A stretch of 64,000 bases of DNA from a virus (lineage: Duplodnaviria > Caudoviricetes). The stretch lies in IMG/VR virus record IMGVR_UViG_3300021387_000688; one strand, 5' to 3'. A program made the position numbers and the translations under genes. The first letter of the stretch is position 1, and each line of letters opens with the position of its first letter. Shown here one piece after another: positions 2 to 36,008 of this stretch. The notes beneath the pieces are model-generated. The model did not search any database, was not told where the DNA came from, and saw only the letters and a list, made by a program, of their open reading frames with translations.

Positions 2-3000
2 GAAATCCCGGAAGATGAGCTTTGGGATAATGAAAATAAGAAAGTAGATCCTTCTAAATATACAAACGCTCAATTGATAGATATGTACAATGACATGAGT
101 CGTCAAGGTATGTATGAAAAATCTCAAACTATTGGGCACAGTAATGTATCTATTACAGATACAATGTATAGTATCAACACTATTGAATTGCCAATAGAAA
201 GTTTAGTATTTGTAAAAGATTTCATTAAAAACAATACACGTACTGAAAGGGTAAAGAAGTATAGTCCTACATTAAACGTAGATTACTTCTATAAAGAATA
301 TATTGTTAACGATCAAATTGAATGGGAAGGGGAATTAGTAGAAGCTCATGCCCTTGTAGATATTTCTACTTCTGGGTCTGATGTAAAAATGTATTCTTTG
401 AAAACTTATAAAGGTTCTATTTTCGGAGACGATGTAGTAACAGTAGAAGAAGATATTTCTAGGTTGGTAGAAGAAAGGGGTGAAATCTTAGCTTGTATTA
501 TTGATAACTACGAAGGAAAACATTTCGTAAAAGTTTATGAAACCTTTACAAGAAATGGAGATTGCTATGTTAAGTTCTACAAGATGGGTGAACCTGATTT
601 GAAAATGTCTACTTTTGAAAACAAAGATATTTATTTAATCTTGGACCTCGATGAAGAGTTGAGTGACGCAAAGGTAGAAGAATTTTCAAAAGAAAGAAGA
701 AAAACCAAGAAAGTAAATATTTATAGAAACGACCAGTTCTTCTTAATTTCTAGAAGTTGGGAGCCTATAACTCAAGAATCCCTAAACTATATGTTGGATA
801 ATACAGAATTGGATGCACCTGAAAATTATGCACGTACTTCAATTCTTTCTACAAAGACTACTGTTCCTAGAGTATTAACAGAATTGGAAGACACTGTAGT
901 ATTCGATGGTAGTGCAGATGATGCAAAAATTGGATTGGTAAAAGATTTAATAGCAGAAAACAAATCTTTGTATTTGGATTCTTCTATTCGTATATTGCAA
1001 CATGTTCCACTTAGTGTTAGTACAACTCAGTGGAGTGAGGATTATGGAGTACTTTCATTCTTATATGAAAGTGGAGACTTGCCTGCACAGATTTCTTTCT
1101 ATGATGTAGATATTTCTTTGTACGATCCTCTTCAAGAAAATGTAAACTTCTTAAAGAGGGATGACTTGCAAGACTTAGGAATGGATGAAGCTCAAAAGGT
1201 TTATAACAGAAGATATGTTGTTTGGGGTAGCGTTGTATGGGATGCAAATACAGATCGATCTGTTGAAGTTTTGAGAACTATTTGGGCATCTTATTTCAGT
1301 AACTTCGAAATATACTCTACTGAAGATATTATTCCTTCAGAGTTGGTTGCACAATCTTTAGGTGTAAAGAATACTTATTCTCAAAATATTTTGAATTATG
1401 ATTACGCAGAGAATGAAGCTAATCCTACAGAACACTGGAATGTTAGTGTCGTATCTAACTTGAGAAGTAATTCTGTTACAAGTGGTGTAATTGCAAACTG
1501 TGCAGCTATTAGATTCCAGGAAGAAAACTTAACTGGAGTAAATAAGGATGCAAATGGTAACATCCTTTTTGAAAACGTATTTGGTAGAACAAAAGCCCTT
1601 GATGTAGGAAACATGTTCTATAGAACAGGTGTTGACGATCCAAGTGCAGGTTTATCATTTGGTGAAGAGCCTATTACTTTTCATAACTTAATAACAGAAG
1701 ACTGTGACTTAACAATTTCTTACGATAACGATTTTAAAGATATCGTCTTTATGAAATATAACCCAGAAAATGCTACTGTTACATTGCATGTAAAGAAAGG
1801 TATCGAAGAAAAGAATAGTAAGTTTACAGAAGGTAGTTGTAGTTATAATAACTTGGATAAACTTATTTGGACAGATGTTACTTCTACAGGATTATTCTCT
1901 GGAGTGTTAGCTAAAGTAGATGTTTTACATGCTAAGATAGATATTGTAAAATATTTGGAATGTATACTTAAAAACTATTCTGTTTTGCACCAGCAAGAAT
2001 TAAAAGGTGAAGTAGGCACTTCTTATACAAATGTAGATGAAAACAATAATGTAAAGATGACCGACATCTTAAATTATACTTATACTTATGCAACTATTGG
2101 TTCTGTAATTCCAGTATTTGCAAGAATGGTAGGTAGTGAATTAGTTATTACAGGATTCTTGTTAGATAAGAAAGGTGAGAATAAATACCACTTACATGTT
2201 TTCCAATTCGGTGCTCCATTTATTGCTCCGGTTGCAAAGACTGTAATTAATACTGACAAATATAATAGATTCCCTGTATTGGAAAAAGACTTTGAAAAAG
2301 TTGTTAAAGAGATTTCTGTATATCCTATTTATATTCCTACTTCAACTTATGATTGTAACTTGAATTTTAAGACAACGGGTGGAGATATTATTCCTAATGC
2401 TATCACAAAAGATAGTCAAGTAGAAGTTTTGGATGAAACTTTAGACACTGAAGATGGGGACGAAGGTAAAATAGATAGAAGCCGTTTGCAGATATCTTAC
2501 TTAGATACAGATGGTAAAAAGAAAAATATCTTCTTGAATAATAACCTTAAGAGATTTAAGGAGTATAAGAATTGCACTGTTTCTTTAAGTACAAGGGCTG
2601 ATGAGGATAACGAAAATTACTTGGATTGTATAATGACTTTTGATGGAGAAGATTTAGATCTTTCTGCTGAAGGCCTTATATCTTTGTACGATATGAAAGT
2701 TCCTGATTTCCGTACAAGATATGATCGTGCATTAGACAATGAAATTAAAGTTGTAGAAAGAAATACAATCTTGGATGATTTACACATTACTGCTTTCAAG
2801 CCTAATGATTTAGATCCTTCTAAAACAGATTTGATTTTGATGAATCCTTTAGATGCAAGTAACTTTAATGTAACTAATGCAATTGAACAACTTACCCCTA
2901 TTGACGAGAATGTACACACTCAGAAGGTTGTAGGAGGAAAAGGTTATATTGCAGATTTGTGGGAAGATGCAGGTTATCCAAAGATTGGATATTCTTACTA

Positions 3001-6000
3001 TAAGAGAGCTTTCATTGCAAATGGCGTAATTTCTCCAAACGACATTACAAGGGTTACTTTAAGTGATGAATCTTTAATAGAAGATGGTATAGATTTGACT
3101 AAGCACATAACTGCAGATGACCCAGTTACTTTGATTTTACACAATCCTCCTTCTTACTATATTGGAGCAGGTGTTAATCTGGAATTGGATACAGGTACAT
3201 ATAGTACTGCAGATGGTCCTTATAAAATCTTGCATGAAGAAACAAAATATGAAGGAGAAGATAAGGGTTCTTCTATCAATTACATCTTGGCCGGTAAACA
3301 TTCTATTGTAGTTGTAAAGGTTAATTTTGAAAACACAAAAGTTCAAGTTACAAGCGTATTTGAACTTCCAGAAGATGTTTCAAACATTAATTACGTTAAT
3401 GGAATATTCACTTTAGAAAAGAATGGTGAAACATATGAATTAAGGTCTACTGGAAATGGTAATTTACCTATTACCACAGATATGTTCTATGCAGGTCAAG
3501 TAAATAATGATACTGCAACTTTCGATGGTTACGTAGCTGTAAAGACTGTATATGATGGAGAAAATACTCAAGATGTAAGAATTAATAAAGTTTCTCAATT
3601 GGTAAATGCGCATGCAGGGTATGAAGATTTAGGACCCGTTAGTATCAAAGCTATTACAACTGTAGGTAGATATACAATCAAGTTTGATGATAAAGATCGA
3701 GTTTACGGAGAAGCTAGATACGGTGGAGAACCTTTAAGATATGTTACAGATCCTGCAGCATTAGAGATATTTGATGCTAGTGGATTTAAAGGTCAAATAT
3801 TAACTGAAGGTTCTGAAGACGATCCAGGATCATTCTCTGTAGAAAGCATTGAAGGTCTTACAGATTTGGATAAATTGAAAGACTGGATTGTTAAAACATT
3901 GAGGAATCAATTCGGTGGAGACCCAACTTTAAGCGACCCTCAATTTGAAGGCTCTATGGAAAAGAGTCAGGATTACTATTACACTACTGCTCAAGGTTCT
4001 GGATTTGCAGCATCAAAGAGTGAATGGGTAAAAGATGAGTTGATGAGAACTCTTCTAAACATCACTGCAAATGATGTATACAATAAACCAGAAGGTACTA
4101 AGCGCTGGAGAAAGGTAATTTCTAAAGATACAATTTATGTACCTACTCTTGAAGAAAGAGACGTAGAAGTAGTTTACGATGATAACTTAACTAAATGGCA
4201 GAAAGTGTATGTAATAAATTCAATAGGTAATACTCTTCTTAAAGATTGTACAGACCCTGAAACATTACAGGCTTTCGTAAAGGCTATCTTGCCAACCAAC
4301 TTTATTACAAGAAAAAGACCTATCATAAGTACTGAAGCTTCTTTGGACGGTACAAAAGTATTATGGGATCAAGACGCTTGTGCACTTACAGTATTTGATA
4401 AAGATGGTAACATTTCTAACAGAATTGCATATCAATACTTAGGATTAAATTACCCTGTAGATCCTGATAAGAGTGGAAAGAATGCTACAGAAGATTGGCT
4501 CATACCTAATAGAATTTATTTGAAAGCAGATGGTACTACTTTCAACAAAGCATTTAATATGGAAACTAGTGATGGAGAAGGTACATCCGAATATGACCAA
4601 ATGTATAAAGAATTTGGAAAGTATGAAGTAAAGGATAAAGTAAATGGTACAATCACAATAGTGGATGGTGCTTTATATATGCCAACTCTGTTAGCTAATG
4701 TTAATGAGGATGACATAGAAATTGTTACTCCAGATGATATGAAGTTCCAGCAGTTAGTTGCAATTTCGAAGGACGTTGAAAAGTGGAACGCCTATGTAGA
4801 TTATATGAAGAAGTTGTCTTGGTTGGCACCTGATTATAGTAATTATATGGTTTTCAATTCTCCTAACGCTATAATCAACTTCCAGAAATTAGATAATAGA
4901 TTGGAAGGATTAAAGAACGCTGGCAAGATTACTGAAGCGCAATATAACAATGCTTCTAATGTGATTAAAAATATTAACACTACTGCAAAAGATGATGATT
5001 GTGCAACAGGTATTATTAAAGGTTCTCCTTATTTGTCTTTCGATAATTATAAGAGTAATCTCTACTTAACTTCTATAGGAGTAGGAGTAGATAGTGGAAC
5101 TAACAAACCTTTGTATTTCAAATCTTTAATTACCAACTCTGGTATATTAATGAGTAGTGGTAAAGAAGCTTACATTTACGGTACAATGAAGTGGCCTACA
5201 TTTACAGAGATTAGAAATCTTTGTGAAGATTCTATCAAGGCAAAATATTCAAAGATGGAAGGTACAGAAAAGGATAATGCTGTAAATGAAGATTTGAATA
5301 AGTTGGCAGATTCATTAAATGCTAGATATGCTAAGTTTGAAACTACTAGTGAAGATGGTATGGACCAATATAAAGTAGGAGAGAATGAAGATGTAGCTCC
5401 TGCAGATACTAAGTTCATGATAAGGGTTAATTTAGATACCGGAGCTATTACACCTATGGGAGGAATGGATGCAGGTAAGACTGCTTCATTCAACAACTTA
5501 TATGCTACTACAATTGTTAATAATAAGATTATGGCAATTACAGATGTAGGTATAGGAGAATTAGGATCTGTAGGTGGTAGTGAATTTAATCCTAGTGTAG
5601 CAGGCGGAGAACAGATTAATGCATTTACGGGAGAGTTGATAAGTGCATTAAAAGATGCTAAAGCCTTTAATGGAAAAATTTCAAGTGAAGGTTCTAAGTT
5701 AACTTTAGGATCAAGTGGAACAACTGTTCATAATCAGCCAGCCGTATTTACGAAGGTAGGTGTAGTAGGAGCTACTAGTTTCACTTTGGAAGACGATGTC
5801 ATTATGGCAGATGAGGGAGACAATACTCCTATCAATGTAACAATGGTTGTAATGGATACAACTAAAGATAACTTCCAATACGGTTATGGGGATGTAGAAG
5901 GTTTGGATCAATTAAATGCCGCAGGTTCTATCTTCCAAGTAAACAGTTCTGAATATGCAGACTTTGCAACTTATGAAATTGCAAACGGCGATCTTATAAG

Positions 6001-8071
6001 TTACTATGCACAGAAGACTGAAGGTGAAGAAAAAACTTGGATATCTGTAGGAAGTAAAATACAAGGATTGTTCGAACCTAGACAAATCGTCAATAGAGAA
6101 AGAGATGAAAATGATACCATCCAGATAGAAAATGTAAGCGTTGCCAAGAGTGTTTATCCTAAACCTTCAGATATTGATGATGAATTGTTAGGTAACTTCT
6201 ATGACTTAGATGCAGAAGGAAATATTAAAACTGTAAAGAATACTTATGGTAGAGAAATCTTAAGGCTTGCTGATTCTACAGAACAGTGGGGTAACTTAAT
6301 TAAGAAAGTTCCTGGACTTGAAGGAAAAGATAAAATATTAGGTGACTTAACAAGTATGGTAACTTACGAAACATTGGAAGGTGGTTCTATAAGTATAACC
6401 CCTACTGTATATCCTGAAGAAATAGATCCTTCGAAGGGAGTTGCTTGGCCAGGAGAGTTAATTGGAAAGGGCTATGATTATGTAAGTAAAATAGGTCAAC
6501 CTATTCCAAAGCTGGTAAAGGTACCTAAAAACAGTGTACAGAACCTTCCTTATACTCAAGCAGAATTTATGATAAATGGAGATTCTGACATTTATGTAGG
6601 AGAAGATTATTTGAAATTGACCGCCACATTCAATAAGCCAAATGCATTATCATCTGAAAAATTCGATGATAATAAAATGAATAATACCCAAGTAACTTCT
6701 ACAGAATTCTATAAAGATTTTACAGAGAATCATCCTTACACTGCTGCTAGGGATGGTTTAGTTACTAGACAGTTGAAAATTAAAGTAGTTAATCCTACTA
6801 CTCAATTGCCTAAATTGGTAGATATTTCAAATTATAGAGTTACAAATAGCAATATATCTAAAGTCTTTAGTATACTTGGTACAGAATCTACAGAAATTGT
6901 AATACCTGCAAACGGTTACGGACAATCTGTAAGAGGTGTTTATACAAAACCTTCTGAATGCAAGTTTGAAGATGATTTATTCTATATGAAAGGAGAAGTA
7001 CAAAACGAGTACGGCGAAACTATTTACTGGGTAGACGGTAGTGATTTGACAGTGAAAGAAAATGGATTACCTGCAAACTATGAACCTATGAGAAGAATGG
7101 TTTACAGATCTTTCAAACAGGCCGATGCACATTTACTTCCAAAGTTGGCTACTAAAGAAAAGACTTCTTATGAAAACCCAGCTGTTGTAATTGACTTGAC
7201 CCAAGAAAAACTTAGAGTAGATAATGCAAATACAATTGTATTTAAGTCTGAAGATGTTTATCCAGATTTCTTTATTAGTAAAGAACGTTCGGCTTCTGCC
7301 AATAAACAAGCTGCTTACAACCAATTCTATTCTAACGTAGAGTTCTCTTGTAGGGTTATGTACACCAAGTTAGGATTTGATGAATCTTCAAGACAAGTTG
7401 ATTTAATTGCAACAGCGGGATTAGATCGTCAGTATGCTACAAGATTGTATACAGATAAAAAGCATATTCCTACATTTACAAAGTATTCTATAGGTGGAGG
7501 AAAGTTTGCAAGAACTGGCGGTTCTTTCGTAGCAGATAATAAATTGTATAGAGTTAGCGAAGATGGTAGAAACCCAATGTACTTAAATGAAGAAGGTGAG
7601 TTAACTCAAACTCCTAATAGTTTAGGACCTGTACATGCAATTGACTATGAATACTTATTACAATTGTATAAGGGATTGGGAAACATCTTTACTTCTATTA
7701 AAGTAACAAACGATGTAGGTTCAAGTGCTTATGACTTGAGTGGTTTGAATATTTCTAACAACTGTTTGTTACCAGATTGGAAAACAAAGACTGTAGGATT
7801 TACTAACAACTCTAACTACAAGATCTTCGTAATGATGAAAGATTTGAATGAAGAAGATTTCGCTTACCAGACTGTAGAAAATGAGGCCGGAAGTAAATCT
7901 TTGTTGAAGATTACTACTCCAACTACAATCTCTGTAGAATATCCTAACACCTTTAAGGAATACAACTTAGCTTACATTAAAGATAAACAAGGAAATATTG
8001 TAGCTAAAGCTTACTTTGATAAGCATAAGGTTAAGGAAGATAGTTTGTTAGTATTCTCTAAATTAAGTTAA
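2..8071 (+). CDS. Giant putative virion structural protein (>2680 aa, 5' end outside the window)
   Basis: The reading frame is already open from position 2 (GAA ATC CCG...), upstream of the listed start at 74. Acidic, low-complexity-free composition typical of large phage virion proteins; no catalytic motif recognised. Confidence 0.6.
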   Translation, partial: EIPEDELWDNENKKVDPSKYTNAQLIDMYNDMSRQGMYEKSQTIGHSNVSITDTMYSINTIELPIESLVFVKDFIKNNTRTERVKKYSPTLNVDYFYKEYIVNDQIEWEGELVEAHALVDISTSGSDVKMYSLKTYKGSIFGDDVVTVEEDISRLVEERGEILACIIDNYEGKHFVKVYETFTRNGDCYVKFYKMGEPDLKMSTFENKDIYLILDLDEELSDAKVEEFSKERRKTKKVNIYRNDQFFLISRSWEPITQESLNYMLDNTELDAPENYARTSILSTKTTVPRVLTELEDTVVFDGSADDAKIGLVKDLIAENKSLYLDSSIRILQHVPLSVSTTQWSEDYGVLSFLYESGDLPAQISFYDVDISLYDPLQENVNFLKRDDLQDLGMDEAQKVYNRRYVVWGSVVWDANTDRSVEVLRTIWASYFSNFEIYSTEDIIPSELVAQSLGVKNTYSQNILNYDYAENEANPTEHWNVSVVSNLRSNSVTSGVIANCAAIRFQEENLTGVNKDANGNILFENVFGRTKALDVGNMFYRTGVDDPSAGLSFGEEPITFHNLITEDCDLTISYDNDFKDIVFMKYNPENATVTLHVKKGIEEKNSKFTEGSCSYNNLDKLIWTDVTSTGLFSGVLAKVDVLHAKIDIVKYLECILKNYSVLHQQELKGEVGTSYTNVDENNNVKMTDILNYTYTYATIGSVIPVFARMVGSELVITGFLLDKKGENKYHLHVFQFGAPFIAPVAKTVINTDKYNRFPVLEKDFEKVVKEISVYPIYIPTSTYDCNLNFKTTGGDIIPNAITKDSQVEVLDETLDTEDGDEGKIDRSRLQISYLDTDGKKKNIFLNNNLKRFKEYKNCTVSLSTRADEDNENYLDCIMTFDGEDLDLSAEGLISLYDMKVPDFRTRYDRALDNEIKVVERNTILDDLHITAFKPNDLDPSKTDLILMNPLDASNFNVTNAIEQLTPIDENVHTQKVVGGKGYIADLWEDAGYPKIGYSYYKRAFIANGVISPNDITRVTLSDESLIEDGIDLTKHITADDPVTLILHNPPSYYIGAGVNLELDTGTYSTADGPYKILHEETKYEGEDKGSSINYILAGKHSIVVVKVNFENTKVQVTSVFELPEDVSNINYVNGIFTLEKNGETYELRSTGNGNLPITTDMFYAGQVNNDTATFDGYVAVKTVYDGENTQDVRINKVSQLVNAHAGYEDLGPVSIKAITTVGRYTIKFDDKDRVYGEARYGGEPLRYVTDPAALEIFDASGFKGQILTEGSEDDPGSFSVESIEGLTDLDKLKDWIVKTLRNQFGGDPTLSDPQFEGSMEKSQDYYYTTAQGSGFAASKSEWVKDELMRTLLNITANDVYNKPEGTKRWRKVISKDTIYVPTLEERDVEVVYDDNLTKWQKVYVINSIGNTLLKDCTDPETLQAFVKAILPTNFITRKRPIISTEASLDGTKVLWDQDACALTVFDKDGNISNRIAYQYLGLNYPVDPDKSGKNATEDWLIPNRIYLKADGTTFNKAFNMETSDGEGTSEYDQMYKEFGKYEVKDKVNGTITIVDGALYMPTLLANVNEDDIEIVTPDDMKFQQLVAISKDVEKWNAYVDYMKKLSWLAPDYSNYMVFNSPNAIINFQKLDNRLEGLKNAGKITEAQYNNASNVIKNINTTAKDDDCATGIIKGSPYLSFDNYKSNLYLTSIGVGVDSGTNKPLYFKSLITNSGILMSSGKEAYIYGTMKWPTFTEIRNLCEDSIKAKYSKMEGTEKDNAVNEDLNKLADSLNARYAKFETTSEDGMDQYKVGENEDVAPADTKFMIRVNLDTGAITPMGGMDAGKTASFNNLYATTIVNNKIMAITDVGIGELGSVGGSEFNPSVAGGEQINAFTGELISALKDAKAFNGKISSEGSKLTLGSSGTTVHNQPAVFTKVGVVGATSFTLEDDVIMADEGDNTPINVTMVVMDTTKDNFQYGYGDVEGLDQLNAAGSIFQVNSSEYADFATYEIANGDLISYYAQKTEGEEKTWISVGSKIQGLFEPRQIVNRERDENDTIQIENVSVAKSVYPKPSDIDDELLGNFYDLDAEGNIKTVKNTYGREILRLADSTEQWGNLIKKVPGLEGKDKILGDLTSMVTYETLEGGSISITPTVYPEEIDPSKGVAWPGELIGKGYDYVSKIGQPIPKLVKVPKNSVQNLPYTQAEFMINGDSDIYVGEDYLKLTATFNKPNALSSEKFDDNKMNNTQVTSTEFYKDFTENHPYTAARDGLVTRQLKIKVVNPTTQLPKLVDISNYRVTNSNISKVFSILGTESTEIVIPANGYGQSVRGVYTKPSECKFEDDLFYMKGEVQNEYGETIYWVDGSDLTVKENGLPANYEPMRRMVYRSFKQADAHLLPKLATKEKTSYENPAVVIDLTQEKLRVDNANTIVFKSEDVYPDFFISKERSASANKQAAYNQFYSNVEFSCRVMYTKLGFDESSRQVDLIATAGLDRQYATRLYTDKKHIPTFTKYSIGGGKFARTGGSFVADNKLYRVSEDGRNPMYLNEEGELTQTPNSLGPVHAIDYEYLLQLYKGLGNIFTSIKVTNDVGSSAYDLSGLNISNNCLLPDWKTKTVGFTNNSNYKIFVMMKDLNEEDFAYQTVENEAGSKSLLKITTPTTISVEYPNTFKEYNLAYIKDKQGNIVAKAYFDKHKVKEDSLLVFSKLS

Positions 8072-8078
8072 TAAAAAG

Positions 8079-8103
8079 AAAAGGCTCCGTGAGGAGCCTT
8101 TTT
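8079..8103. terminator. Bidirectional intrinsic terminator
   Basis: AAAAGGCTCC-gtga-GGAGCCTTTT between convergent genes. Confidence 0.85.
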
Positions 8104-8121
8104 GTTTATTTTTTTAATCTT

Positions 8122-8835
8122 TTAGATTGAATTGATCAAACTGAACAATTCTGCTCTAGCTTCTGGCTGAGTTTCAAATACCCCGCGAAGTACTGAAGTT
8201 GTAGTTGTAGCATCTTCAGATTTAACACCACGAACTGCTACGCAGCTATGAGTAATATCTTTCATTACTACTGCACATCCTACTGGGTCCAATACATCTA
8301 CCATTGCATCTGCAATCTGTTCACTCAATTGTTCCTGAATCTGGAAACGATGTGCATAATCTCTTGCCATGCGAGGAATCTTTGACAATCCACATACTTT
8401 GTCTTTTGGAATATAAGCTACATAAACAAATGAATCATCTTTATATGTTCCAAACGGTGCAATATGATGTTCACATTGTGAGAATAACTTAAACTTGCAA
8501 ATAACAATACCATTCTGGAAGTAAGATGTTTTCTGTACTCCAGTCTTTTCTCCATTAATGGCATTACCGCGTTCAACGTCAAATACTTTTTTGATATGAC
8601 GTTTTGGATCTACCATGTATCCTGATGCAAATGCTTCAGTCCAATACTTTGCAAGACGATGAGGAGTTTCTTTCATTCCATCTGGAAGCTCTTCTTCATC
8701 TGTAAGTCCCATTGTTTTTTTAAGAAGATGTGCAAACATTGCTTCATCTTCTTTGTTAAAAATGTTTTTGATTTCTACCTCAGATTCGGTAGTTTCATAG
8801 ACAGGCTGTCCGCCTTTGTAATTAATGTGTTTCAT
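8122..8835 (-). CDS. folE: GTP cyclohydrolase I
   Basis: Motifs ETPHR, SQCEHH..PF, GLSKIPR, R.QIQE.L..QIA, H.C...RGV, T.T..LRG.F; AAGGAG RBS. Confidence 0.95.
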   Translation of the reverse strand: MKHINYKGGQPVYETTESEVEIKNIFNKEDEAMFAHLLKKTMGLTDEEELPDGMKETPHRLAKYWTEAFASGYMVDPKRHIKKVFDVERGNAINGEKTGVQKTSYFQNGIVICKFKLFSQCEHHIAPFGTYKDDSFVYVAYIPKDKVCGLSKIPRMARDYAHRFQIQEQLSEQIADAMVDVLDPVGCAVVMKDITHSCVAVRGVKSEDATTTTSVLRGVFETQPEARAELFSLINSI

Positions 8836-28295: not shown

Positions 28296-30422
28296 ATGGC
28301 TTTTAGTTTGAACAAAAAAGCGAACCAAGCCGTTTCATCAGAATCAGTATGGAGAGTAGACCATATTGTTGGAAACGAGTTTGTAACCGTCGTTCTCGAT
28401 TTACCTATTCGAGAAATGTCTAGTCTTGATAAAGAAATCCTAAAATATCTAGAAAGTATTTTATCTAAAGCAGGAATTGCTTCTTATGTAATTACTTCTG
28501 CGCTTTCTAAATATCCTAACGAAAAAGAGCTTAAAAAAGGTCTTACAGATTATTACATCAATCACAATTCGGGTTGGTTTGAACAGATTGTTAAACCTGC
28601 AAGAGAAAAAGGAATGACGGCAGATGTTATTGTAGCATTCGGTCCAGCCTTATATCAAATTACAAAAACAGCAACAGACTTCACAGTAGATGATTTAATC
28701 TATCCTGCATTTGAAAATTATGTTTATGTAGGACACGGATATGTAGGAGATTATGATGCATTTATATTCCCGCAGTATCCAATTCAGGAAGTTTTCGTTC
28801 CAGGACTTCAAGATGGAGTTGAACAAGTAGAACTTGGTTGTTGGAAAATGAATTTCATGGTTTCTGTATTTAAGAAAATTGCAGCTCGTAAATATCAGTT
28901 ACCGGACGACATGGGTCCAGTTGAATTAAGAGAGATTGGGGAGAATTACGATACAGATAAAGAAGGTGCAGTAAAAGAAACTGAAGAGTTTTTGAAAACA
29001 CATTTCAATGAAGATGTATGCGCATTCGACTTGGAAACATCTGGTTTCAATGCATGGAAATGTAAGATTAGATGTATTACACTTTCATTTGATGGTAACG
29101 TAGGTTATTATTTGGAATGGAAGATTTTCAAAGAAAATCCTTATTTAATTGATTTACTTTCTGAAATGATGTTAACTGCTAAGCATCGTGTAACAGTTAA
29201 TGGAAAGTTCGATATTAAGTTCCTTTGGGTTAATGGCTTAAGTTTGGATGTAAATGTAAACGAAGATGCAATGACATTGAGCCATGTATTATGTTCTGGA
29301 AGACATAAAGGTTTGAAAACGAATGCATTCTTCTGGACCCCATATGGTGGTTACGATCACAAACTTGATGAGTATCGTGATAACTTGAAAAAGAAAGGAA
29401 TTAAGGACCCATCATTCTATGATATTCCAAAAATAATTCTTAGACCATATGCGACTATGGATGCTATCATAACAGTTCGTATTTGGAGAGCAGGTCTTAA
29501 ACGTATTCAGAAATTCGATTTTGAATATCCTACAGAATATCCAATCGAGTATACAGGCGGACATGCATATGGTGCTTATGAATGGTACCAGAACGTTATG
29601 CAGATTTATCCAATCATTTGTAGAATGGAATATGATGGCATGTATGTAGATGAAGAAATCATCGAAATGCATAGAAACATTTTCAGAAGAAAGATTGATG
29701 AAGCTCGTAAAGAGTTGAGTAAGATTTTTGGAACACCTTATGATTTCAAATATGGTTCAGCTGCAGCTTTAGGAAGACTTTTGGAAGAAAAAGGTTGGCC
29801 ATGTCATGGTAGAGCCAAAGATGGTTCATATGAAACATCGGATGATTGTTTCGTAGAATGGACAAGAGATGGTATGCCAGGAGTTAAATGGCTTAAGAAG
29901 TTCCGTGTAGCAAATACATGTTTGAGATCTTATCTTGGAGTAACTGAAAAGACAGTAGATCAGAAAAGAGGAACAATTAAAGTTGAACAAACTGGTTGGC
30001 CTCAGTATTGGGTAAAACATCCAGATGGAAGTACTCGTATTCATTGTAACTTTACAGTATGTGGAACAGAAACTTTCCGTATGATTTCTCGTGAACCAAA
30101 CTTGCAGAATGTGCCAACTCATTCACAGGAAGGTTCTATTACAAAGATGTCATTTACAGTTCCTCCTGCAGCCGCTGCAACTATTACAGATGAAAATGGA
30201 AAGAAGTGGTGGATTACAGAGTTAGGAATTATTAATACAGAACGTGGTTATGTAGCAATGAAGGCTTTGACAGAAGACGATACTATTGTAGATATCGGAG
30301 AAGAAACTACTTTGGAATTTGATGAATGGATGGCTAAAGGAATTAAGCCAATTGGAATGGAAACAATGTTAGGTAAACACAATCAAATTCTTGAAGGAAA
30401 GTTTGTATTACAGGAGGAATAA
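28296..30422 (+). CDS. polA: Family A DNA polymerase, fragment 1 (UDG-like N-domain, 3'-5' exonuclease, thumb) plus a non-polymerase tail
   Basis: ExoI FDLETSG, ExoII NGKFD, ExoIII YATMD, RIH.NF...TETFR..SREPNLQNVP; polymerase homology ends at MSFTVPP just before motif A. Confidence 0.92.
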   Translation: MAFSLNKKANQAVSSESVWRVDHIVGNEFVTVVLDLPIREMSSLDKEILKYLESILSKAGIASYVITSALSKYPNEKELKKGLTDYYINHNSGWFEQIVKPAREKGMTADVIVAFGPALYQITKTATDFTVDDLIYPAFENYVYVGHGYVGDYDAFIFPQYPIQEVFVPGLQDGVEQVELGCWKMNFMVSVFKKIAARKYQLPDDMGPVELREIGENYDTDKEGAVKETEEFLKTHFNEDVCAFDLETSGFNAWKCKIRCITLSFDGNVGYYLEWKIFKENPYLIDLLSEMMLTAKHRVTVNGKFDIKFLWVNGLSLDVNVNEDAMTLSHVLCSGRHKGLKTNAFFWTPYGGYDHKLDEYRDNLKKKGIKDPSFYDIPKIILRPYATMDAIITVRIWRAGLKRIQKFDFEYPTEYPIEYTGGHAYGAYEWYQNVMQIYPIICRMEYDGMYVDEEIIEMHRNIFRRKIDEARKELSKIFGTPYDFKYGSAAALGRLLEEKGWPCHGRAKDGSYETSDDCFVEWTRDGMPGVKWLKKFRVANTCLRSYLGVTEKTVDQKRGTIKVEQTGWPQYWVKHPDGSTRIHCNFTVCGTETFRMISREPNLQNVPTHSQEGSITKMSFTVPPAAAATITDENGKKWWITELGIINTERGYVAMKALTEDDTIVDIGEETTLEFDEWMAKGIKPIGMETMLGKHNQILEGKFVLQEE

Positions 30423-30425
30423 AAG

Positions 30426-31388
30426 ATGTTAAAGATTACTAAAAGATCTGCTACAATAGATGATTTTTTGAAAATGAAAAAGAAAGAGCCATTTGCAACA
30501 TGGCGACAGACATCTAAGCTTGAAAACTTCGGTTTGATGTTCGGTGCACAGTATTCAACATTCGCCCACATTCTTCAGACAGCAGAACCACCTTTTACAA
30601 TTGAAGATTGTAAAAACTATATCAAACTTGCACATGCAGAAGATGTTTATAATGAAATGTTGATGAAGGCTCAGAAAGGAAGACACCGTCTTTATGAAAT
30701 GAGACCTAATGTAGAATGTTGGTATTATGCAACAGCAAAAGTAATGCGTGAAGCATTCTTGAATGGATATAGTGGATTGAAAGAACGTATTGAACGTGAA
30801 CATAAGTTTGCTATTAAACATTACTATACAAGAAACTGGTATGGTTCTGTAAGATGGTACCCTGAGTTAGCTTATATGAATATTGATCCAATTGAGAAAA
30901 CATTGAAGGGTGCAGATAAAAAGTATTTTGCATATATCTTCTCTCATTTAATGAACAACGCCGCAAACGGTCCTGTACAGAGTGGAGAGACGGTATTTAT
31001 TTACAATGGTTGGATTCATGCAAATAAAAAGATGAAGGAATGGGATTTAAGATCTCAGATTTGTAATACAATTCATGACTCTTTGGATGCATATTTGTGG
31101 AAGCCAGAAAAAGAATTAATGAAGGCTTTGATTAATGCAAGTGTACATGATAAGATTCGTTATCCTCATGAAAATGTATTCCACTTCATGGAACCTGAAA
31201 TCTCTGACATTAGAGATTATGAACATATTACAGGTTATAAAGAAGGGGAGTTTACAGGAGATGAAAAGATCTTAGGACACTTCTATAAACATGGTGAAGA
31301 AGAGAAAGCAGCCCCAATTGCAGATGCTCTTAAAGCTTATAATGAAACTTGGGGAACCAATTGGGAATGGACATTGCCATTAATTTAA
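30426..31388 (+). CDS. polA: Family A DNA polymerase, C-terminal fragment (motifs B and C)
   Basis: RQTSKLENFGLMFG (motif B), AANGPVQS, TIHDSL (motif C); own GGAGG RBS. Confidence 0.92.
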   Translation: MLKITKRSATIDDFLKMKKKEPFATWRQTSKLENFGLMFGAQYSTFAHILQTAEPPFTIEDCKNYIKLAHAEDVYNEMLMKAQKGRHRLYEMRPNVECWYYATAKVMREAFLNGYSGLKERIEREHKFAIKHYYTRNWYGSVRWYPELAYMNIDPIEKTLKGADKKYFAYIFSHLMNNAANGPVQSGETVFIYNGWIHANKKMKEWDLRSQICNTIHDSLDAYLWKPEKELMKALINASVHDKIRYPHENVFHFMEPEISDIRDYEHITGYKEGEFTGDEKILGHFYKHGEEEKAAPIADALKAYNETWGTNWEWTLPLI

Positions 31389-31398
31389 GGAGAATAAT

Positions 31399-31785
31399 AT
31401 GAGTTGTAAAATTGAAATAGATCCATTTAATAAAAAAGCAGGTAAGTTATGTTATTTGTTAATGACTCAGGATGCTGCGTCATTGGAGGCTCGTGTATGC
31501 ACAAGTGATACTGTTCTTAATAAGAATGGTATTGATAAAGTTTTGTTCTCGGTATATGATCCAGTACATGGAAATAACGACTTACATAGTACTACAAGTT
31601 TCGCTACATTCGGTTCATCTGTAAACTTACAGATTAATGAAATAGTAGACGATAACGGAAAAACATGGTTGTGTTTGGATGACCAGTCTATTGTAATTAA
31701 AAGAGATGGCCAGCAGATCACGGTTTTAGGAAAAGAATTAAAAGAAACAGATGAAATTGTTGGTTATGTAGAGGATGTAGCTTAA
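31399..31785 (+). CDS. polA: Family A DNA polymerase, middle fragment (motif A) plus a non-polymerase tail
   Basis: LLMTQDAASLEARV (motif A, cf. DYSQIELRV) and DLHSTTS (cf. DLH..TA); own AAGGAG RBS. Confidence 0.88.
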   Translation: MSCKIEIDPFNKKAGKLCYLLMTQDAASLEARVCTSDTVLNKNGIDKVLFSVYDPVHGNNDLHSTTSFATFGSSVNLQINEIVDDNGKTWLCLDDQSIVIKRDGQQITVLGKELKETDEIVGYVEDVA

Positions 31786-32558: not shown

Positions 32559-35500
32559 ATGCAAAAGAAACAAAACGATTCTTACACAGGAGATGCAATC
32601 ACAAATAACATCAAATATGCAGATAATGAATGGCAGGCTCATGGTACAGTAGACCGTGGTTCTATGTTCTTAACTGAGCCTCTTTTAGGTTTGTTATATG
32701 CAGGTAAGAAATATGATAAAGATTTAGGGGATTATAAAGATTATGTACCTCGTGGTAGTATGTCTAGTACTGCAGGTTTGGATGCAAATGCAACTGCATT
32801 AGCAAGAGCAAAATTTCAGATTGAACCAGCCCGTTTAAGTCATGACTTGCTATTATTAGATGCAACCTATTATGTATCTACTGCTAACAGTTCATTAGTA
32901 AACATTTTCGATGTCGATACATATATCAAAAAAGCTATTTCTATAGCTAACCCTATTTACGACGATCACGTAAATTACAAAGTTATACACTTAATTGATC
33001 CAGACAATGTAGATGAAAACCTTACTGTAAAGGATTTCTTAAAACAAGTGCATCCAAAAGCCGCTTTAGGTAAAGATATAAATGACGAGGATTTAGGTGT
33101 AGTATTTGAAAGATATTCTGTAAAAAGGACCGATAACTCTCAATTTACGTTAAACCCAAATACAAAAATTAAAGAGTTTTTAAGCCATAAGGATGAAGAT
33201 ACTCTTGAAGGAATTGCAGCAAAAGTATTCTATGAAGACTTTACATTACATGAACACGATCCTCTTTCTATTAGAAATCCTTTTGATGTAAGATCTGAAG
33301 AAAGGCGTCAATATTATCTTTCAAGATTCTTAGCCAATACAGTATCTCATTCTTTAGGAGTATCTGAAAACGGTTTAGGATATTATGAAATCTTAAATAA
33401 CATGATTGAAGATGCTACCTTCCATTCATATGGTACTGCAGAAGATACATGGCCAAAAAGGGTTTTCGGAGACGAAGCTCTTCAATGGAACCTAGAAAAT
33501 GCATATTCTTGGACATCTAATCTAGTAGGGGAGGATGATGAACATTTACCAATAGAAGATACTACAGAAACCCAAGATAATAAATACATAGAAGTGTTTA
33601 GAAGATTCTTAGGGGATAAATCTTCCAGAGCAAACTATAAAGAGTATTTGAGAAGAATGAATACTGCTATTTCTTCTATCTCAAAATACTGTATCGATGT
33701 ATATGTAGACTGGGATACAAGTGATCCTGGATCTATCAAAGACTCTTGGGGTATTCACCTTTTGAATGAAGAGTCTACTACAAACTTGTTCCAGGATAAC
33801 AGCCACAACTATAGGCTTTTCAATACTGCAGCTTTAGGTTATAAATTGGCAGATGCTCTTATTTCTTTAAGAACATTCTTAGGTGGTTTCTATCACATGT
33901 TCTCTGCTTCAGGAGGAGATTCTGAACAAGCTACATATGTTATCCCTTATGATACCCCTATTTATGAAAGATCTGTTAACACTACTCCTATAGGAGCATT
34001 ATGTGAAGGTAACGTAGATTGGAATGGTTCAGGAGAAAATCCATTTTATAGACAAAATACTTATGTTACAATAGATACATTAAACAACTTGTATAGATTG
34101 GGACATGGCATTAAAGGAGACATCGTCGCCAGTGATGATTATCCAAGTTCTTATGCATTTGAAGCTGAAATTAAAGAATGGTTGTCAAACGAAACTCTTA
34201 TGATTAAAGCACCTGTATATGGTGACTATGTAGAAGAGTTGAACTTCATGCAGGATTTGAACCCAGATTCTGATGTTAACTTCGCCAACTTAAGGATTAA
34301 GAAAACTTCTATTCCTTATAAAAATTCTCAGGATTCTAAATATGAAGAACCCTTCGTAATGAGAACTAATCCTCTTGTCAACCGGGAAAAGGAAAACAAA
34401 AAAGGATATGGAGTACATGCATCTGAAGCTTTGGCAGCTGTAGGTGATAACCCAGATGGATTAAATTGGGGAGAAAATGAACCCAAAACTTCTCATGTTA
34501 TCCCTCCTTTCTTATATGACTATGATAAGAGAAATGAAGAAGATTTCTTAGAGGCAGATGAAAGGCTTTTAAGTAAAGAAGGGGCTAAACAAAGGGTTGC
34601 AAACCCAGCAGGTAATTCTGTAATAGAATCTAGAATAGAATCTCCTACAATTGATGAATTGTGGACATTCTTGAAATACTTAACAGAATCTGACGGTAAT
34701 GTAAATGATTCTAATAGATTACCTTCTTTCTATGGTATCGATAAAAAGTTTATCAAAAACAGCTTAATAACAAAAGAGGATTTTGCAAATACAGTAAACC
34801 CAATGGCCGCTGAAGATAACAATCGTAAGATTATTGATATCTTAAACTGGCACATTATTCCAGATACTAGCAAACCTCCTTACTATAGTTCTGAAGCCGA
34901 GAATGAAATACGTTTAGGTGGATATGAAGTTACAGAGTATATCGATAAGATTTACGACTATGAAATAAATCCATTCTCAAGAAGGGTTGTTAAGAAGGAC
35001 GGGGATAAGTATGAATATGATACAGAGGCCCAGTTCGATCAAGATGTTAACGGAAAGTATTCTAACAGTCATGATGAACCTACAGGTTATCTTGAAAAGT
35101 TGTACAACGAAACAATTGCAAACTTTGCTTTGTATAATGCATTAGAGGGAGATGAATCTTTATCAAATGCCGCAGAAATTGTTAGCATATTTGAAGATGA
35201 AAACTATGATAATTACTTTAATGCAGAAGCAGATAAACTTATCAAGACCCCTACTTCAGAAAAGAAGCTAGCTTATGCACAAGCCCAATGGTCTAATCAA
35301 AGAGTTAAAGCTTTCACTTTATTGAGTAGGATTTTGAATTATCATAAAGCTGATGGGGAAAATGATTTAGTAGATGGTAAAGATACTTCTTATCACAACC
35401 ACTATAAACATTATATGAACCATCCAAAAAACTTGAAATCTATCGAAAGGGATTTGGAAGCTATTCGTCAAAACTTGCAGAGCTTAGCTGAATTTGCTTT

Positions 35501-36008
35501 AGCTACCTTCACTTCTATGGGTTATGCAGATAGATCTACAAACCGTGGCACATTACATCAATTGCATAGAAACAGTTTTGATTTCAATTCTACTTTGATA
35601 GGTACAGATAAGTTTAATGGACCTATTAGCTTAGCAGATTTGAACAATACAATTGCAGATCCTGAACCAAATACTCTTTACAACTTTGCAGTTACCGTTT
35701 ACAAAGGAGAAGATTTAGCAAACTCTTTAAACAACTTAGTTGAACCAAAGGTAGATGGCGACTTGTTAGTATCTGCAATGGATAGAAAAGTTGTATTTGA
35801 AGATGGTGAGTTTGCAGAAAGATATAAAGAAGATGTTTATGATCATAATATCATAGATTTAAGAGGACCTGTAGTTAATACAAGGGCTCTTAAAGAAAGG
35901 TATAGTCCTAATGAGACTTTACTAAGTGAAGTATACTTGGCCGCAGACGGTACATGGAGAAGTATCCACGAACACCCAGTTGCACCTATTTTGGATTGCG
36001 AATTTTAA
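32559..36008 (+). CDS. Large putative virion protein
   Basis: 1149-aa acidic ORF between baseplate-like and tube-like genes. Confidence 0.6.
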   Translation: MQKKQNDSYTGDAITNNIKYADNEWQAHGTVDRGSMFLTEPLLGLLYAGKKYDKDLGDYKDYVPRGSMSSTAGLDANATALARAKFQIEPARLSHDLLLLDATYYVSTANSSLVNIFDVDTYIKKAISIANPIYDDHVNYKVIHLIDPDNVDENLTVKDFLKQVHPKAALGKDINDEDLGVVFERYSVKRTDNSQFTLNPNTKIKEFLSHKDEDTLEGIAAKVFYEDFTLHEHDPLSIRNPFDVRSEERRQYYLSRFLANTVSHSLGVSENGLGYYEILNNMIEDATFHSYGTAEDTWPKRVFGDEALQWNLENAYSWTSNLVGEDDEHLPIEDTTETQDNKYIEVFRRFLGDKSSRANYKEYLRRMNTAISSISKYCIDVYVDWDTSDPGSIKDSWGIHLLNEESTTNLFQDNSHNYRLFNTAALGYKLADALISLRTFLGGFYHMFSASGGDSEQATYVIPYDTPIYERSVNTTPIGALCEGNVDWNGSGENPFYRQNTYVTIDTLNNLYRLGHGIKGDIVASDDYPSSYAFEAEIKEWLSNETLMIKAPVYGDYVEELNFMQDLNPDSDVNFANLRIKKTSIPYKNSQDSKYEEPFVMRTNPLVNREKENKKGYGVHASEALAAVGDNPDGLNWGENEPKTSHVIPPFLYDYDKRNEEDFLEADERLLSKEGAKQRVANPAGNSVIESRIESPTIDELWTFLKYLTESDGNVNDSNRLPSFYGIDKKFIKNSLITKEDFANTVNPMAAEDNNRKIIDILNWHIIPDTSKPPYYSSEAENEIRLGGYEVTEYIDKIYDYEINPFSRRVVKKDGDKYEYDTEAQFDQDVNGKYSNSHDEPTGYLEKLYNETIANFALYNALEGDESLSNAAEIVSIFEDENYDNYFNAEADKLIKTPTSEKKLAYAQAQWSNQRVKAFTLLSRILNYHKADGENDLVDGKDTSYHNHYKHYMNHPKNLKSIERDLEAIRQNLQSLAEFALATFTSMGYADRSTNRGTLHQLHRNSFDFNSTLIGTDKFNGPISLADLNNTIADPEPNTLYNFAVTVYKGEDLANSLNNLVEPKVDGDLLVSAMDRKVVFEDGEFAERYKEDVYDHNIIDLRGPVVNTRALKERYSPNETLLSEVYLAADGTWRSIHEHPVAPILDCEF

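Follow-up and report, generated by a model that had tools for sequence, protein, structure and literature searches.

Introduction

Inteins are usually viewed as being either kept functional or precisely deleted. Fractured genes that carry naturally split inteins, such as gp41-1 and NrdJ-1, have been described mainly in phages; the halves of these inteins were reported to show an acidic/basic polarity, and, in the model put forward there, the gene parts can come to lie at separate loci once the endonuclease is lost (Dassa et al., 2009; PMC2677866). A second case is the NrdA of phage Aeh1, which is split into NrdA-a and NrdA-b by mobE, and for which the authors speculated that the tails at the break may be degenerate intein remnants (Crona et al., 2010; PMC3045599). 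In this study, we analyzed the window, that is, the whole 64,000-nucleotide stretch from a Caudoviricetes virus (IMG/VR record IMGVR_UViG_3300021387_000688), in which three adjacent open reading frames (ORFs), ORF1, ORF2 and ORF3, encode the pieces of one family-A DNA polymerase and carry tails and leaders at both breaks that resemble parts of the Hint fold of inteins.

On the evidence presented below, the tails are probably truncated, catalytically dead Hint modules that have been fixed as insertion domains of the polymerase, and the three chains would dock without being covalently joined. In one open-access library, a scope that gives no proof of novelty, neither a family-A polymerase with non-catalytic half-Hint modules nor this permuted three-gene layout was found to have been described.

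Results

A family-A DNA polymerase divided among three genes

The three genes are closely packed on the plus strand and encode the following pieces of the polymerase.

28296..30422, plus strand: ORF1, 708 amino acids; N-terminal domain, 3'-5' exonuclease, family-A thumb and palm up to the strand preceding motif A, and tail 1
30426..31388, plus strand: ORF2, 320 amino acids; C-terminal fingers and palm with motifs B (RQTSKLENFG) and C (IHDSLD); Pfam DNA_pol_A at residues 102-241
31399..31785, plus strand: ORF3, 128 amino acids; middle piece with leader, motif A (LLMTQDAASLEARV), DLHS helix and tail 2

Judged by motif content, the protein order is ORF1, ORF3, ORF2, whereas the gene order is ORF1, ORF2, ORF3, i.e. 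the N-terminal, the C-terminal and then the middle piece. ORF1 matches the PHROG 17 DNA polymerase as well as Pfam DNA_pol_A (residues 457-624) and DNA_pol_A_exo1 (residues 228-398), the latter slightly under the curated cut-off, and its polymerase part finishes after PNLQNVP...FTVPP. The 3'-5' exonuclease and motifs A, B and C that define a family-A PolA are all present, but divided among three polypeptides.

Tails and leaders at the two breaks

A first-pass annotation of the window had placed mutually similar, non-polymerase peptides at the ends of ORF1 (~30180-30296) and ORF3 (~31639-31767), and short extra leaders at the starts of the two receiving fragments. The peptides were found exactly there, as residues 629-667 of ORF1 (TITDENGKKWW...TIVDI; 30180-30296) and residues 81-123 of ORF3 (EIVDDNGKTW...EIVGY; 31639-31767), and so were the leaders, ORF2 starting with MLKITKRS and ORF3 with MSCKIEIDPFNKK. 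In the features listed below, IntN and IntC denote the N- and C-terminal fragments of an intein.

30168..30296, plus strand: tail 1 core, ORF1 residues 625-667; Hint-like lobe corresponding to block B to the IntN end; block-B position T-E-L-G, without the His
30297..30419, plus strand: tail 1 remainder, ORF1 residues 668-708; conserved GEETTLEFDEW..KGIKPIGMETM, two short helices in the model, then the lineage-specific end LGKHNQILEGKFVLQEE (alignments A1, A2 and A4)
30426..30449, plus strand: ORF2 leader MLKITKRS; basic strand, counterpart of the first IntC strand, which would complete the tail-2 Hint-like module
31399..31443, plus strand: ORF3 leader MSCKIEIDPFNKKAG; return strand of the tail-1 module, counterpart of the first IntC strand
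31627..31782, plus strand: tail 2, ORF3 residues 77-128; Hint-like lobe, Gln at the block-B His position, acidic end ETDEIVGYVEDVA

The similarity between the two tails was also recovered in three comparisons. In BLASTP, 15 of 40 residues were identical (E 0.003, a single comparison), and family profiles built from 28 tail-1 and 19 tail-2 homologues were aligned by hhalign over 39 columns with an E value of 4.8e-4 and a probability of just 32%. Further, when the A7 hidden Markov model (HMM) of the tail-2-type insertion was run against the 852 six-frame ORFs of the window, ORF1 residues 628-672 were the sole extra match (E 3.3e-4); the sequences from which this HMM was built include the window's ORF3 tail and ORF2 start, and matches to those were not counted as extra. 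The tail-to-tail similarity is real but modest, lying above chance, and would fit two diverged copies of one kind of module. The tails are acidic, with net charges of -9 (tail 1) and -7 (tail 2), and the first 10 residues of ORF2 carry a charge of about +3, as they do in ORF2-type proteins.

Similarity of the tails to the middle of the Hint fold

The first-pass annotation had further proposed that the tails resemble the second half of IntN and that MLKITKR resembles the first IntC strand. Searches of the tails against Hint domains by profile and by Foldseek agreed with the first proposal, with strong intein and Hint matches for the tail-2-type model and weak ones for tail 1. In Pfam, neither tail matched a Hint or intein family at E values up to 10, where chance-level matches only (Permuted_GreAB-C, RPOC_hybrid and DUF7443) were obtained. 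Against PDB, the sole match of the tail-1 profile A2 with E < 10 was to residues 87-106 of NrdJ-1 (TKNRGYVRADELTDDDELVV; E 0.33), which we take to be the end of its IntN, and the best match of the tail-2 profile A3 was to residues 90-120 of the Aes123 PolB1 split intein (9hth; VTADHSVMVKRDGKIIDVKPTEMKQTDRVV; E 0.017). Both matches fall on the part from block B to the IntN end, the same part of the intein that is matched structurally.

The tail-2-type module was modelled by AlphaFold from a contiguous relative (P0283, residues 614-735) with a 40-row alignment that included the window tail and ORF2 leaders, giving a predicted local distance difference test (pLDDT) score of 90. When this model was searched against PDB with Foldseek, each of the top 43 matches was an intein, a Hedgehog domain or a BIL domain (best E 1.9e-3), and in VIA-align, run against 48,161 chains, the top 25 were all Hint proteins. 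The best VIA-align match was the Pho PolII mini-intein, with Z 9.6, a root-mean-square deviation of 2.0 Å and 26% identity over 61 residues (model 16-76 vs. chain 73-138), followed by further scores of Z 8.9 for PI-PfuI, 8.5 for gp41-1 and 8.0 for KlbA, while the best non-Hint protein reached 4.5. The helices that flank the insertion match the Klenow fragment separately. In the A7 alignment, ORF2 opens with the long strand 68-80 of the P0283 model and the end of ORF3 immediately precedes it, and this strand lies within the Hint match for several inteins; MLKITKRS thus maps to the strand following the split site, as had been anticipated for the first strand of IntC.

The tail-1-type module was modelled likewise from a fused relative (P0113, residues 616-736; pLDDT 80.5). 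In its VIA-align list, inteins made up the top 11 of 46 entries and were aligned at their central parts, for instance at residues 59-134 of NrdJ-1, and inteins dominated its Foldseek list as well. The ORF3 leader is near-identical to P0113 residues 710-721 (KIEIDPFNKKAG); in the model these make up strand 94-102, inside the intein-aligned range.

The Hint stretch that is matched covers only ~60-65 central residues, as in Pho PolII (73-138 of 170) and MchDnaB-1 (45-119 of 130). When compared with a complete Hint fold, i.e. blocks A, B, F and G in ~130 or more residues, about half a Hint domain is present, and for this portion the predicted models of the relatives show the Hint-type beta-hairpin architecture. 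These models support a Hint-type fold well for the tail-2 type and moderately for the tail-1 type. An SH3/Tudor-type fold was rejected for the tails, as the best such match (Tudor 2xdp) had Z 3.6 vs. 9.6 for Hint. The ESM Atlas model of ORF3 was of low quality (pLDDT 0.45). Among its structural neighbours are several split polymerase fragments that bear inteins; all neighbours have template modelling (TM) scores < 0.5 and are taken as a lead only.

A genuine-looking intein (CFSGDTEIL ... IIKN/CQNIPSHG) was observed at ~579-889 of P0207, a distant polymerase relative of 1230 amino acids. It lies inside the PNxQNIP motif, a third site that is distinct from both tail sites.

Missing splicing residues and positions of the breaks

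The tail-1 insertion starts immediately after FTVPP and the tail-2 insertion after the FG that follows DLHS, leaving just ~10-20 residues ahead of the block-B equivalent, and block A with its Cys or Ser 1 is not present. At block B, tail 1 keeps the Thr and has a nearly invariant Gly at the His position (T-x-L-G), and tail 2 has an invariant Gln there, aligned to the His of 'TADHS' in Aes123 PolB1. Blocks F/G, a terminal His-Asn and a +1 Cys/Ser/Thr are all not present at either break: MLKITKRS leads directly into a fingers element (ATIDDFLKMKKKEPF) that is also found in insertion-free relatives such as P0192, and the ORF3 leader leads directly into motif A. The first-pass annotation had reported that the block-B His and the terminal His-Asn are lacking and had not expected splicing; the absence of these residues was confirmed, and because the catalytic residues are not present, splicing is indeed not expected. 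The fused relatives, in which polymerase motifs directly adjoin the modules, also point to no splicing.

Both breaks map, at the level of ranges only, to the canonical split-intein site, which is the homing-endonuclease position of inteins. At this resolution the break lies between the IntN and the IntC part, at the endonuclease insertion site, as in a split intein; the remainder of tail 1 occupies the spot of the endonuclease or split in inteins.

The fold of a protein-splicing element and breaks at the split-intein site would be compatible with the pieces being covalently joined after translation by an unconventional trans-splicing reaction, yielding a mature enzyme without tails. However, the whole N-terminal Hint part with its nucleophile is gone, the block-B His is replaced by Gly and Gln, and the modules are devoid of blocks F/G, the terminal Asn and the +1 Cys/Ser/Thr, while the fused relatives retain them internally. 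We consider covalent joining very improbable.

Conservation of the modules in fused, split and permuted relatives

The 118 ORF1 homologues fall into two length classes, and the class of ~830-850 amino acids consists of ORF1 fused to ORF3. Tail 1 is thus internal in >100 fused proteins, i.e. in most relatives, where it forms an insertion of ~100 residues between FTVPP and the motif-A strand, followed by a linker and a return strand (e.g. ...KIEIDPFNKKAGKLCYLLMTQD in P0113); this return strand is the ORF3 leader of the window. More distant full-length polymerases have no insertion at the tail-1 site. Tail 2 (...ETDEI.GY.E) is the C-terminal end of every ORF1+ORF3 fusion.

ORF2 has 52 stand-alone homologues of ~320 amino acids, and in an exhaustive search many stand-alone C-fragments, down to ~30% identity, were found to share the start residue. 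Their N-terminus reads M-L-K-I-T-x-R, and in 34 such fragments, with identities down to 27-38%, the conservation of K3 and I4 is 90% or higher; the shared start and conserved N-terminus indicate an old break at tail 2. At tail 1, the break arose recently. The element after MLKITKR (SATIDDFLKMKKKEPF) is ordinary fingers sequence, present also without the insertion.

Tail 2 was also found within unbroken proteins, most closely in P0169 (443 amino acids), an ORF3+ORF2 protein in normal order, then in the more distant full-length P0283, P0205 and P0210, and also in P0215 (401 amino acids). The spacing from DxHS to motif B forms a graded series across the relatives, from 31 to 101 residues. The central idea of the first-pass annotation, namely that non-splicing, split-intein-like remnants stand at both breaks, is supported, and the proposed use of dead half-Hint modules as assembly tags is plausible. 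The tails are, however, not additions made at the breaks; they are conserved insertion domains that occur in unbroken polypeptides as well.

This conservation would fit an alternative in which the modules are Hint-derived but were selected for a role elsewhere, such as contact with DNA, the clamp, the helicase or another replisome protein, and in which the breaks lie in a permissive loop targeted by a homing endonuclease. In its favour, both modules are strongly conserved without a break (tail 1 in the >100 fusions, tail 2 in P0283, P0205, P0210 and P0215), and tail 1 has invariant T, G, W and P residues, none of them corresponding to a catalytic residue of inteins. It does not account, however, for the strong conservation that the start of the C-fragment shows only as an N-terminal strand, or for an acidic/basic pairing that follows the split-intein pattern; docking and another role are not mutually exclusive. 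A role elsewhere in place of docking is, in our judgement, distinctly improbable.

The pieces act as independent modules, as seen from the ORF1+ORF3 fusions, P0169, the permuted P0174 and ORF2 lying alone at a distance. In fused-type phages the ORF2 homologue is located elsewhere, none being found within ~5 kb of the fused gene in L001, and in L004 the ORF2 homologue P0152 is alone on a 137,757-base contig. In P0174 (491 amino acids), an ORF2-type part with motifs B and C is followed by an ORF3-type part with motif A and tail 2 in one polypeptide; this appears to be a natural circular permutation of the catalytic region of the polymerase, in the same order as the ORF2 and ORF3 genes of the window. 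In P0172 (401 amino acids, on a 1.6-kb contig), the ORF2-type C-terminal third runs in frame into a DnaB_C-type helicase domain (PF03796), which may be a fusion of polymerase fragment and helicase or a short-contig artefact.

Scans of IMG/VR with ORF1 and ORF3 gave no close relatives, and cultured phages, e.g. T5-like Vibrio phages and Listeria phages, share only ~22-28% identity. A search with ORF2 for longer unsplit or intein-bearing relatives returned nothing, which is weak evidence only.

Homing-endonuclease genes at the breaks

The homologues of ORF1 and ORF3 are separated by a DUF7487 gene in L003, L008 and L009. Such a gene comes directly after ORF1 in L006, with no ORF3 nearby, and L007 has no DUF7487 gene. 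In PHROG, the DUF7487 proteins match two homing-endonuclease families, 3339 and 12131, so a homing-endonuclease gene is present at the tail-1 break in 4 of the 5 split relatives examined. Between the halves in the window there is no free-standing homing-endonuclease gene, and ORF2 sits at that position. In L010 and L011, the nearest relative of ORF2 (74% identity) has a DUF7487 gene downstream, with ORF3 beyond it, and a second DUF7487 gene upstream on the opposite strand.

Comparison of the split L003 with the fused P0032 showed flanks that are mostly 88-100% identical and a tail-1 tract with only ~52-77% identity (40-column windows). Such a dip around the endonuclease site is the pattern expected if the break came with an endonuclease cassette and its flanks.

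Two further observations concern these genes. At 3932-6964 of L010/L011, where the ORF2 homologue is flanked by DUF7487 genes on either strand, the downstream one of L010 is broken into ORFs of 107 and 202 amino acids. In the fused ORF1+ORF3 phage L001, a gene for 129 amino acids with a weak HNH_2 match (E 0.022) was found at 7900-8289, ~400 bases downstream of the fused gene, after a coiled-coil protein.

Genomic context of the polymerase genes

The intergenic gaps are 3 nt (ORF1/ORF2) and 10 nt (ORF2/ORF3), and a ribosome-binding site was read from the sequence for each of the two downstream genes.

30412..30417, plus strand: ribosome-binding site AGGAGG for ORF2, within the 3' end of ORF1
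31387..31392, plus strand: ribosome-binding site AAGGAG for ORF3

Between the three polymerase genes, neither Rfam or intron matches nor plus-strand terminators were found. An identical ORF2 occurs on 22 contigs, the longest of them 397,621 bases, and the ORF1-ORF2-ORF3 block was present in all four places shown, from four samples. As the same block recurs in several samples, an assembly artefact was ruled out.

Breakage by mobile elements could also have left a decaying pseudogene, the similarity of the tails then being incidental. Against this, the three ORFs are intact, tightly packed and preceded by ribosome-binding sites, the block was kept in each of the four places shown among the 22 contigs with identical ORF2, and each piece has many homologues with conserved catalytic motifs. 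This explanation, to which we give hardly any credence, was rejected because the pieces are conserved and the block recurs across several samples.

ORF1 and ORF2 share a reading frame (30420-30428) with only TAA AAG between them, and read-through of one stop would join the N- and C-terminal pieces; the shared frame may be chance (one in three). Residues 1-210 of ORF1 (28296-28930) form an N-terminal domain (MAFSLNKK...) ahead of the exonuclease, with many positions invariant family-wide and no Pfam match. Elsewhere in the window there are two very long ORFs on the plus strand, at 2-8068 (2689 amino acids, open at the window start) and at 32559-36008 (1149 amino acids).

Discussion

A probable mechanism for the assembly of the polymerase can be outlined from these data. 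The tails would be of intein ancestry, with the tail-1 module lying in the palm loop just ahead of motif A and the tail-2 module in the fingers just ahead of motif B. Each module retains the Hint middle, i.e. the part from block B to the end of IntN plus the first IntC strand, and lacks the block-B His, the region of the N-terminal nucleophile and blocks F/G; inside each, the gene is broken at the position of the intein endonuclease or natural split. The downstream piece would then add its basic N-terminal strand (MLKITKRS or MSCKIEID...) to the acidic beta lobe that ends the upstream piece, a strand addition that can be likened to the first 'capture' step of split-intein association, the two pairs being putatively orthogonal, and the polymerase's own interfaces would complete the assembly. 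Since such assembly would be independent of gene order, the pieces can be permuted, relocated or re-fused. A complex prediction for tail 2 (A3) with ORF2 (A5), run without controls, gave a median score of 0.26, under the mark of 0.32, and is weighed on neither side here.

Several points weigh against this interpretation. Docking and activity are argued from sequence and predicted models, and the models are those of the relatives P0113 and P0283, not of the window's own split pieces; the tail-1-type model scored low (Foldseek E of at least 0.15, Z up to 4.5). The sequence matches to inteins are individually insignificant (E 0.017 and 0.33), the A7 tail-2/leader profile showed no similarity to the genuine intein of P0207 (hhalign probability 0.1%), and among the sequences examined no relative carries an intact intein at either tail site. 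Both modules are conserved within unbroken polypeptides, so that their primary role may not be docking, and the graded insert lengths could equally reflect stepwise growth of beta-hairpins and not intein decay. In addition, the tails of Aeh1 NrdA, the only biochemically studied analogue, are dispensable for heterodimer formation (PMC3045599).

Most of these points can be drawn together in a rival explanation, namely that the insertions are ordinary, lineage-specific beta-hairpin domains that have converged on half a Hint fold, and that the polymerase core re-associates via its own large interfaces with little contribution from tails and leaders. The continuous variation of insert length at the tail-2 site, the lack of tail 1 in more distant full-length relatives, the weak intein matches with no similarity to the real intein of P0207, and the Aeh1 NrdA tails that heterodimers do not require (PMC3045599) would all fit it. 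However, two independent aligners returned almost only Hint proteins from 48,161 and 350,542 chains, and the best structural match, with 26% identity at 2.0 Å, spans the whole beta domain; the weak sequence matches coincide with the structurally matched part of the intein. Further, both breaks are at the split-intein site with homing-endonuclease genes at the breaks, and the extreme N-terminus of the C-fragment is kept at ~30% identity. We therefore regard convergence as unlikely, and docking through dead Hint modules as the probable explanation.

More tentatively, inteins might quite possibly end as permanent, non-catalytic 'half-Hint' domains that serve as natural non-covalent split tags, here as two related but distinct pairs of acidic lobe and basic strand in one polymerase. 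On this proposal the three genes could stand in any order or at any loci, be re-fused, or be circularly permuted as in P0174; at least the split allele of tail 1 would still be spreading with a homing endonuclease whose target is the module-coding DNA, and half of the pseudo-symmetric Hint fold would be stable as a domain.

If this holds, a third fate of inteins would be added, in which the catalytic parts are lost and the association module is retained in an essential enzyme, and a concrete mechanism would be at hand for the tolerance of phages to gene breakage by homing endonucleases. What Crona et al. speculated on degenerate inteins (PMC3045599) would thereby become testable. For protein engineering, the modules would offer naturally evolved, non-splicing and possibly orthogonal split-tag pairs of ~50 + 8 residues, and the naturally permuted polymerase P0174 is of interest in its own right. 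Annotation that does not bring the three pieces together will wrongly record the family-A polymerases of giant gut and rumen phages as truncated.

Of the known systems, the Hedgehog Hog and BIL domains belong to the same fold class, with Hedgehog 1at0 and BIL 2lwy among the structural matches. Hog and BIL domains retain a complete Hint domain and its autocatalytic chemistry, whereas the modules described here amount to about half a Hint domain without the catalytic residues. The Aes123 intein is an active, cysteine-less splicing intein. In the split gp43 polymerases of T4-like phages and Aes123 PolB1 (PDB 9hth; cited in PMC2677866), a replicative polymerase is likewise encoded by two genes, but it is of family B.

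The locus resembles the fractured genes (PMC2677866) in that an IntN-type lobe ends the upstream gene and an IntC-type strand starts the downstream gene, with acidic/basic complementarity between them. The free-standing homing-endonuclease gene that lies between the halves of fractured genes has a counterpart in the relatives L003, L008 and L009 and not in the window. That counterpart is a DUF7487/PHROG 3339 protein, and the family described in PMC2677866 is Vsr-like. Unlike in the fractured genes, only the Hint middle is present, the splicing residues are gone, ligation is not expected and the modules also occur in unbroken proteins; moreover, the enzyme belongs to the family-A polymerases, has two such sites and is encoded in a permuted gene order.

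The present case shares with Aeh1 NrdA (PMC3045599) the fragmentation of an essential phage enzyme through a homing endonuclease, the extra tails at the C- and N-termini next to the break, and the lack of splicing, which for the present polymerase is a prediction. The Aeh1 tails, in contrast, are short unique sequences without demonstrated Hint similarity that are needed for dimerisation of the heterodimers and not for fragment pairing (PMC3045599), while the tails of the present polymerase are old, conserved insertion domains with a predicted Hint-type fold.

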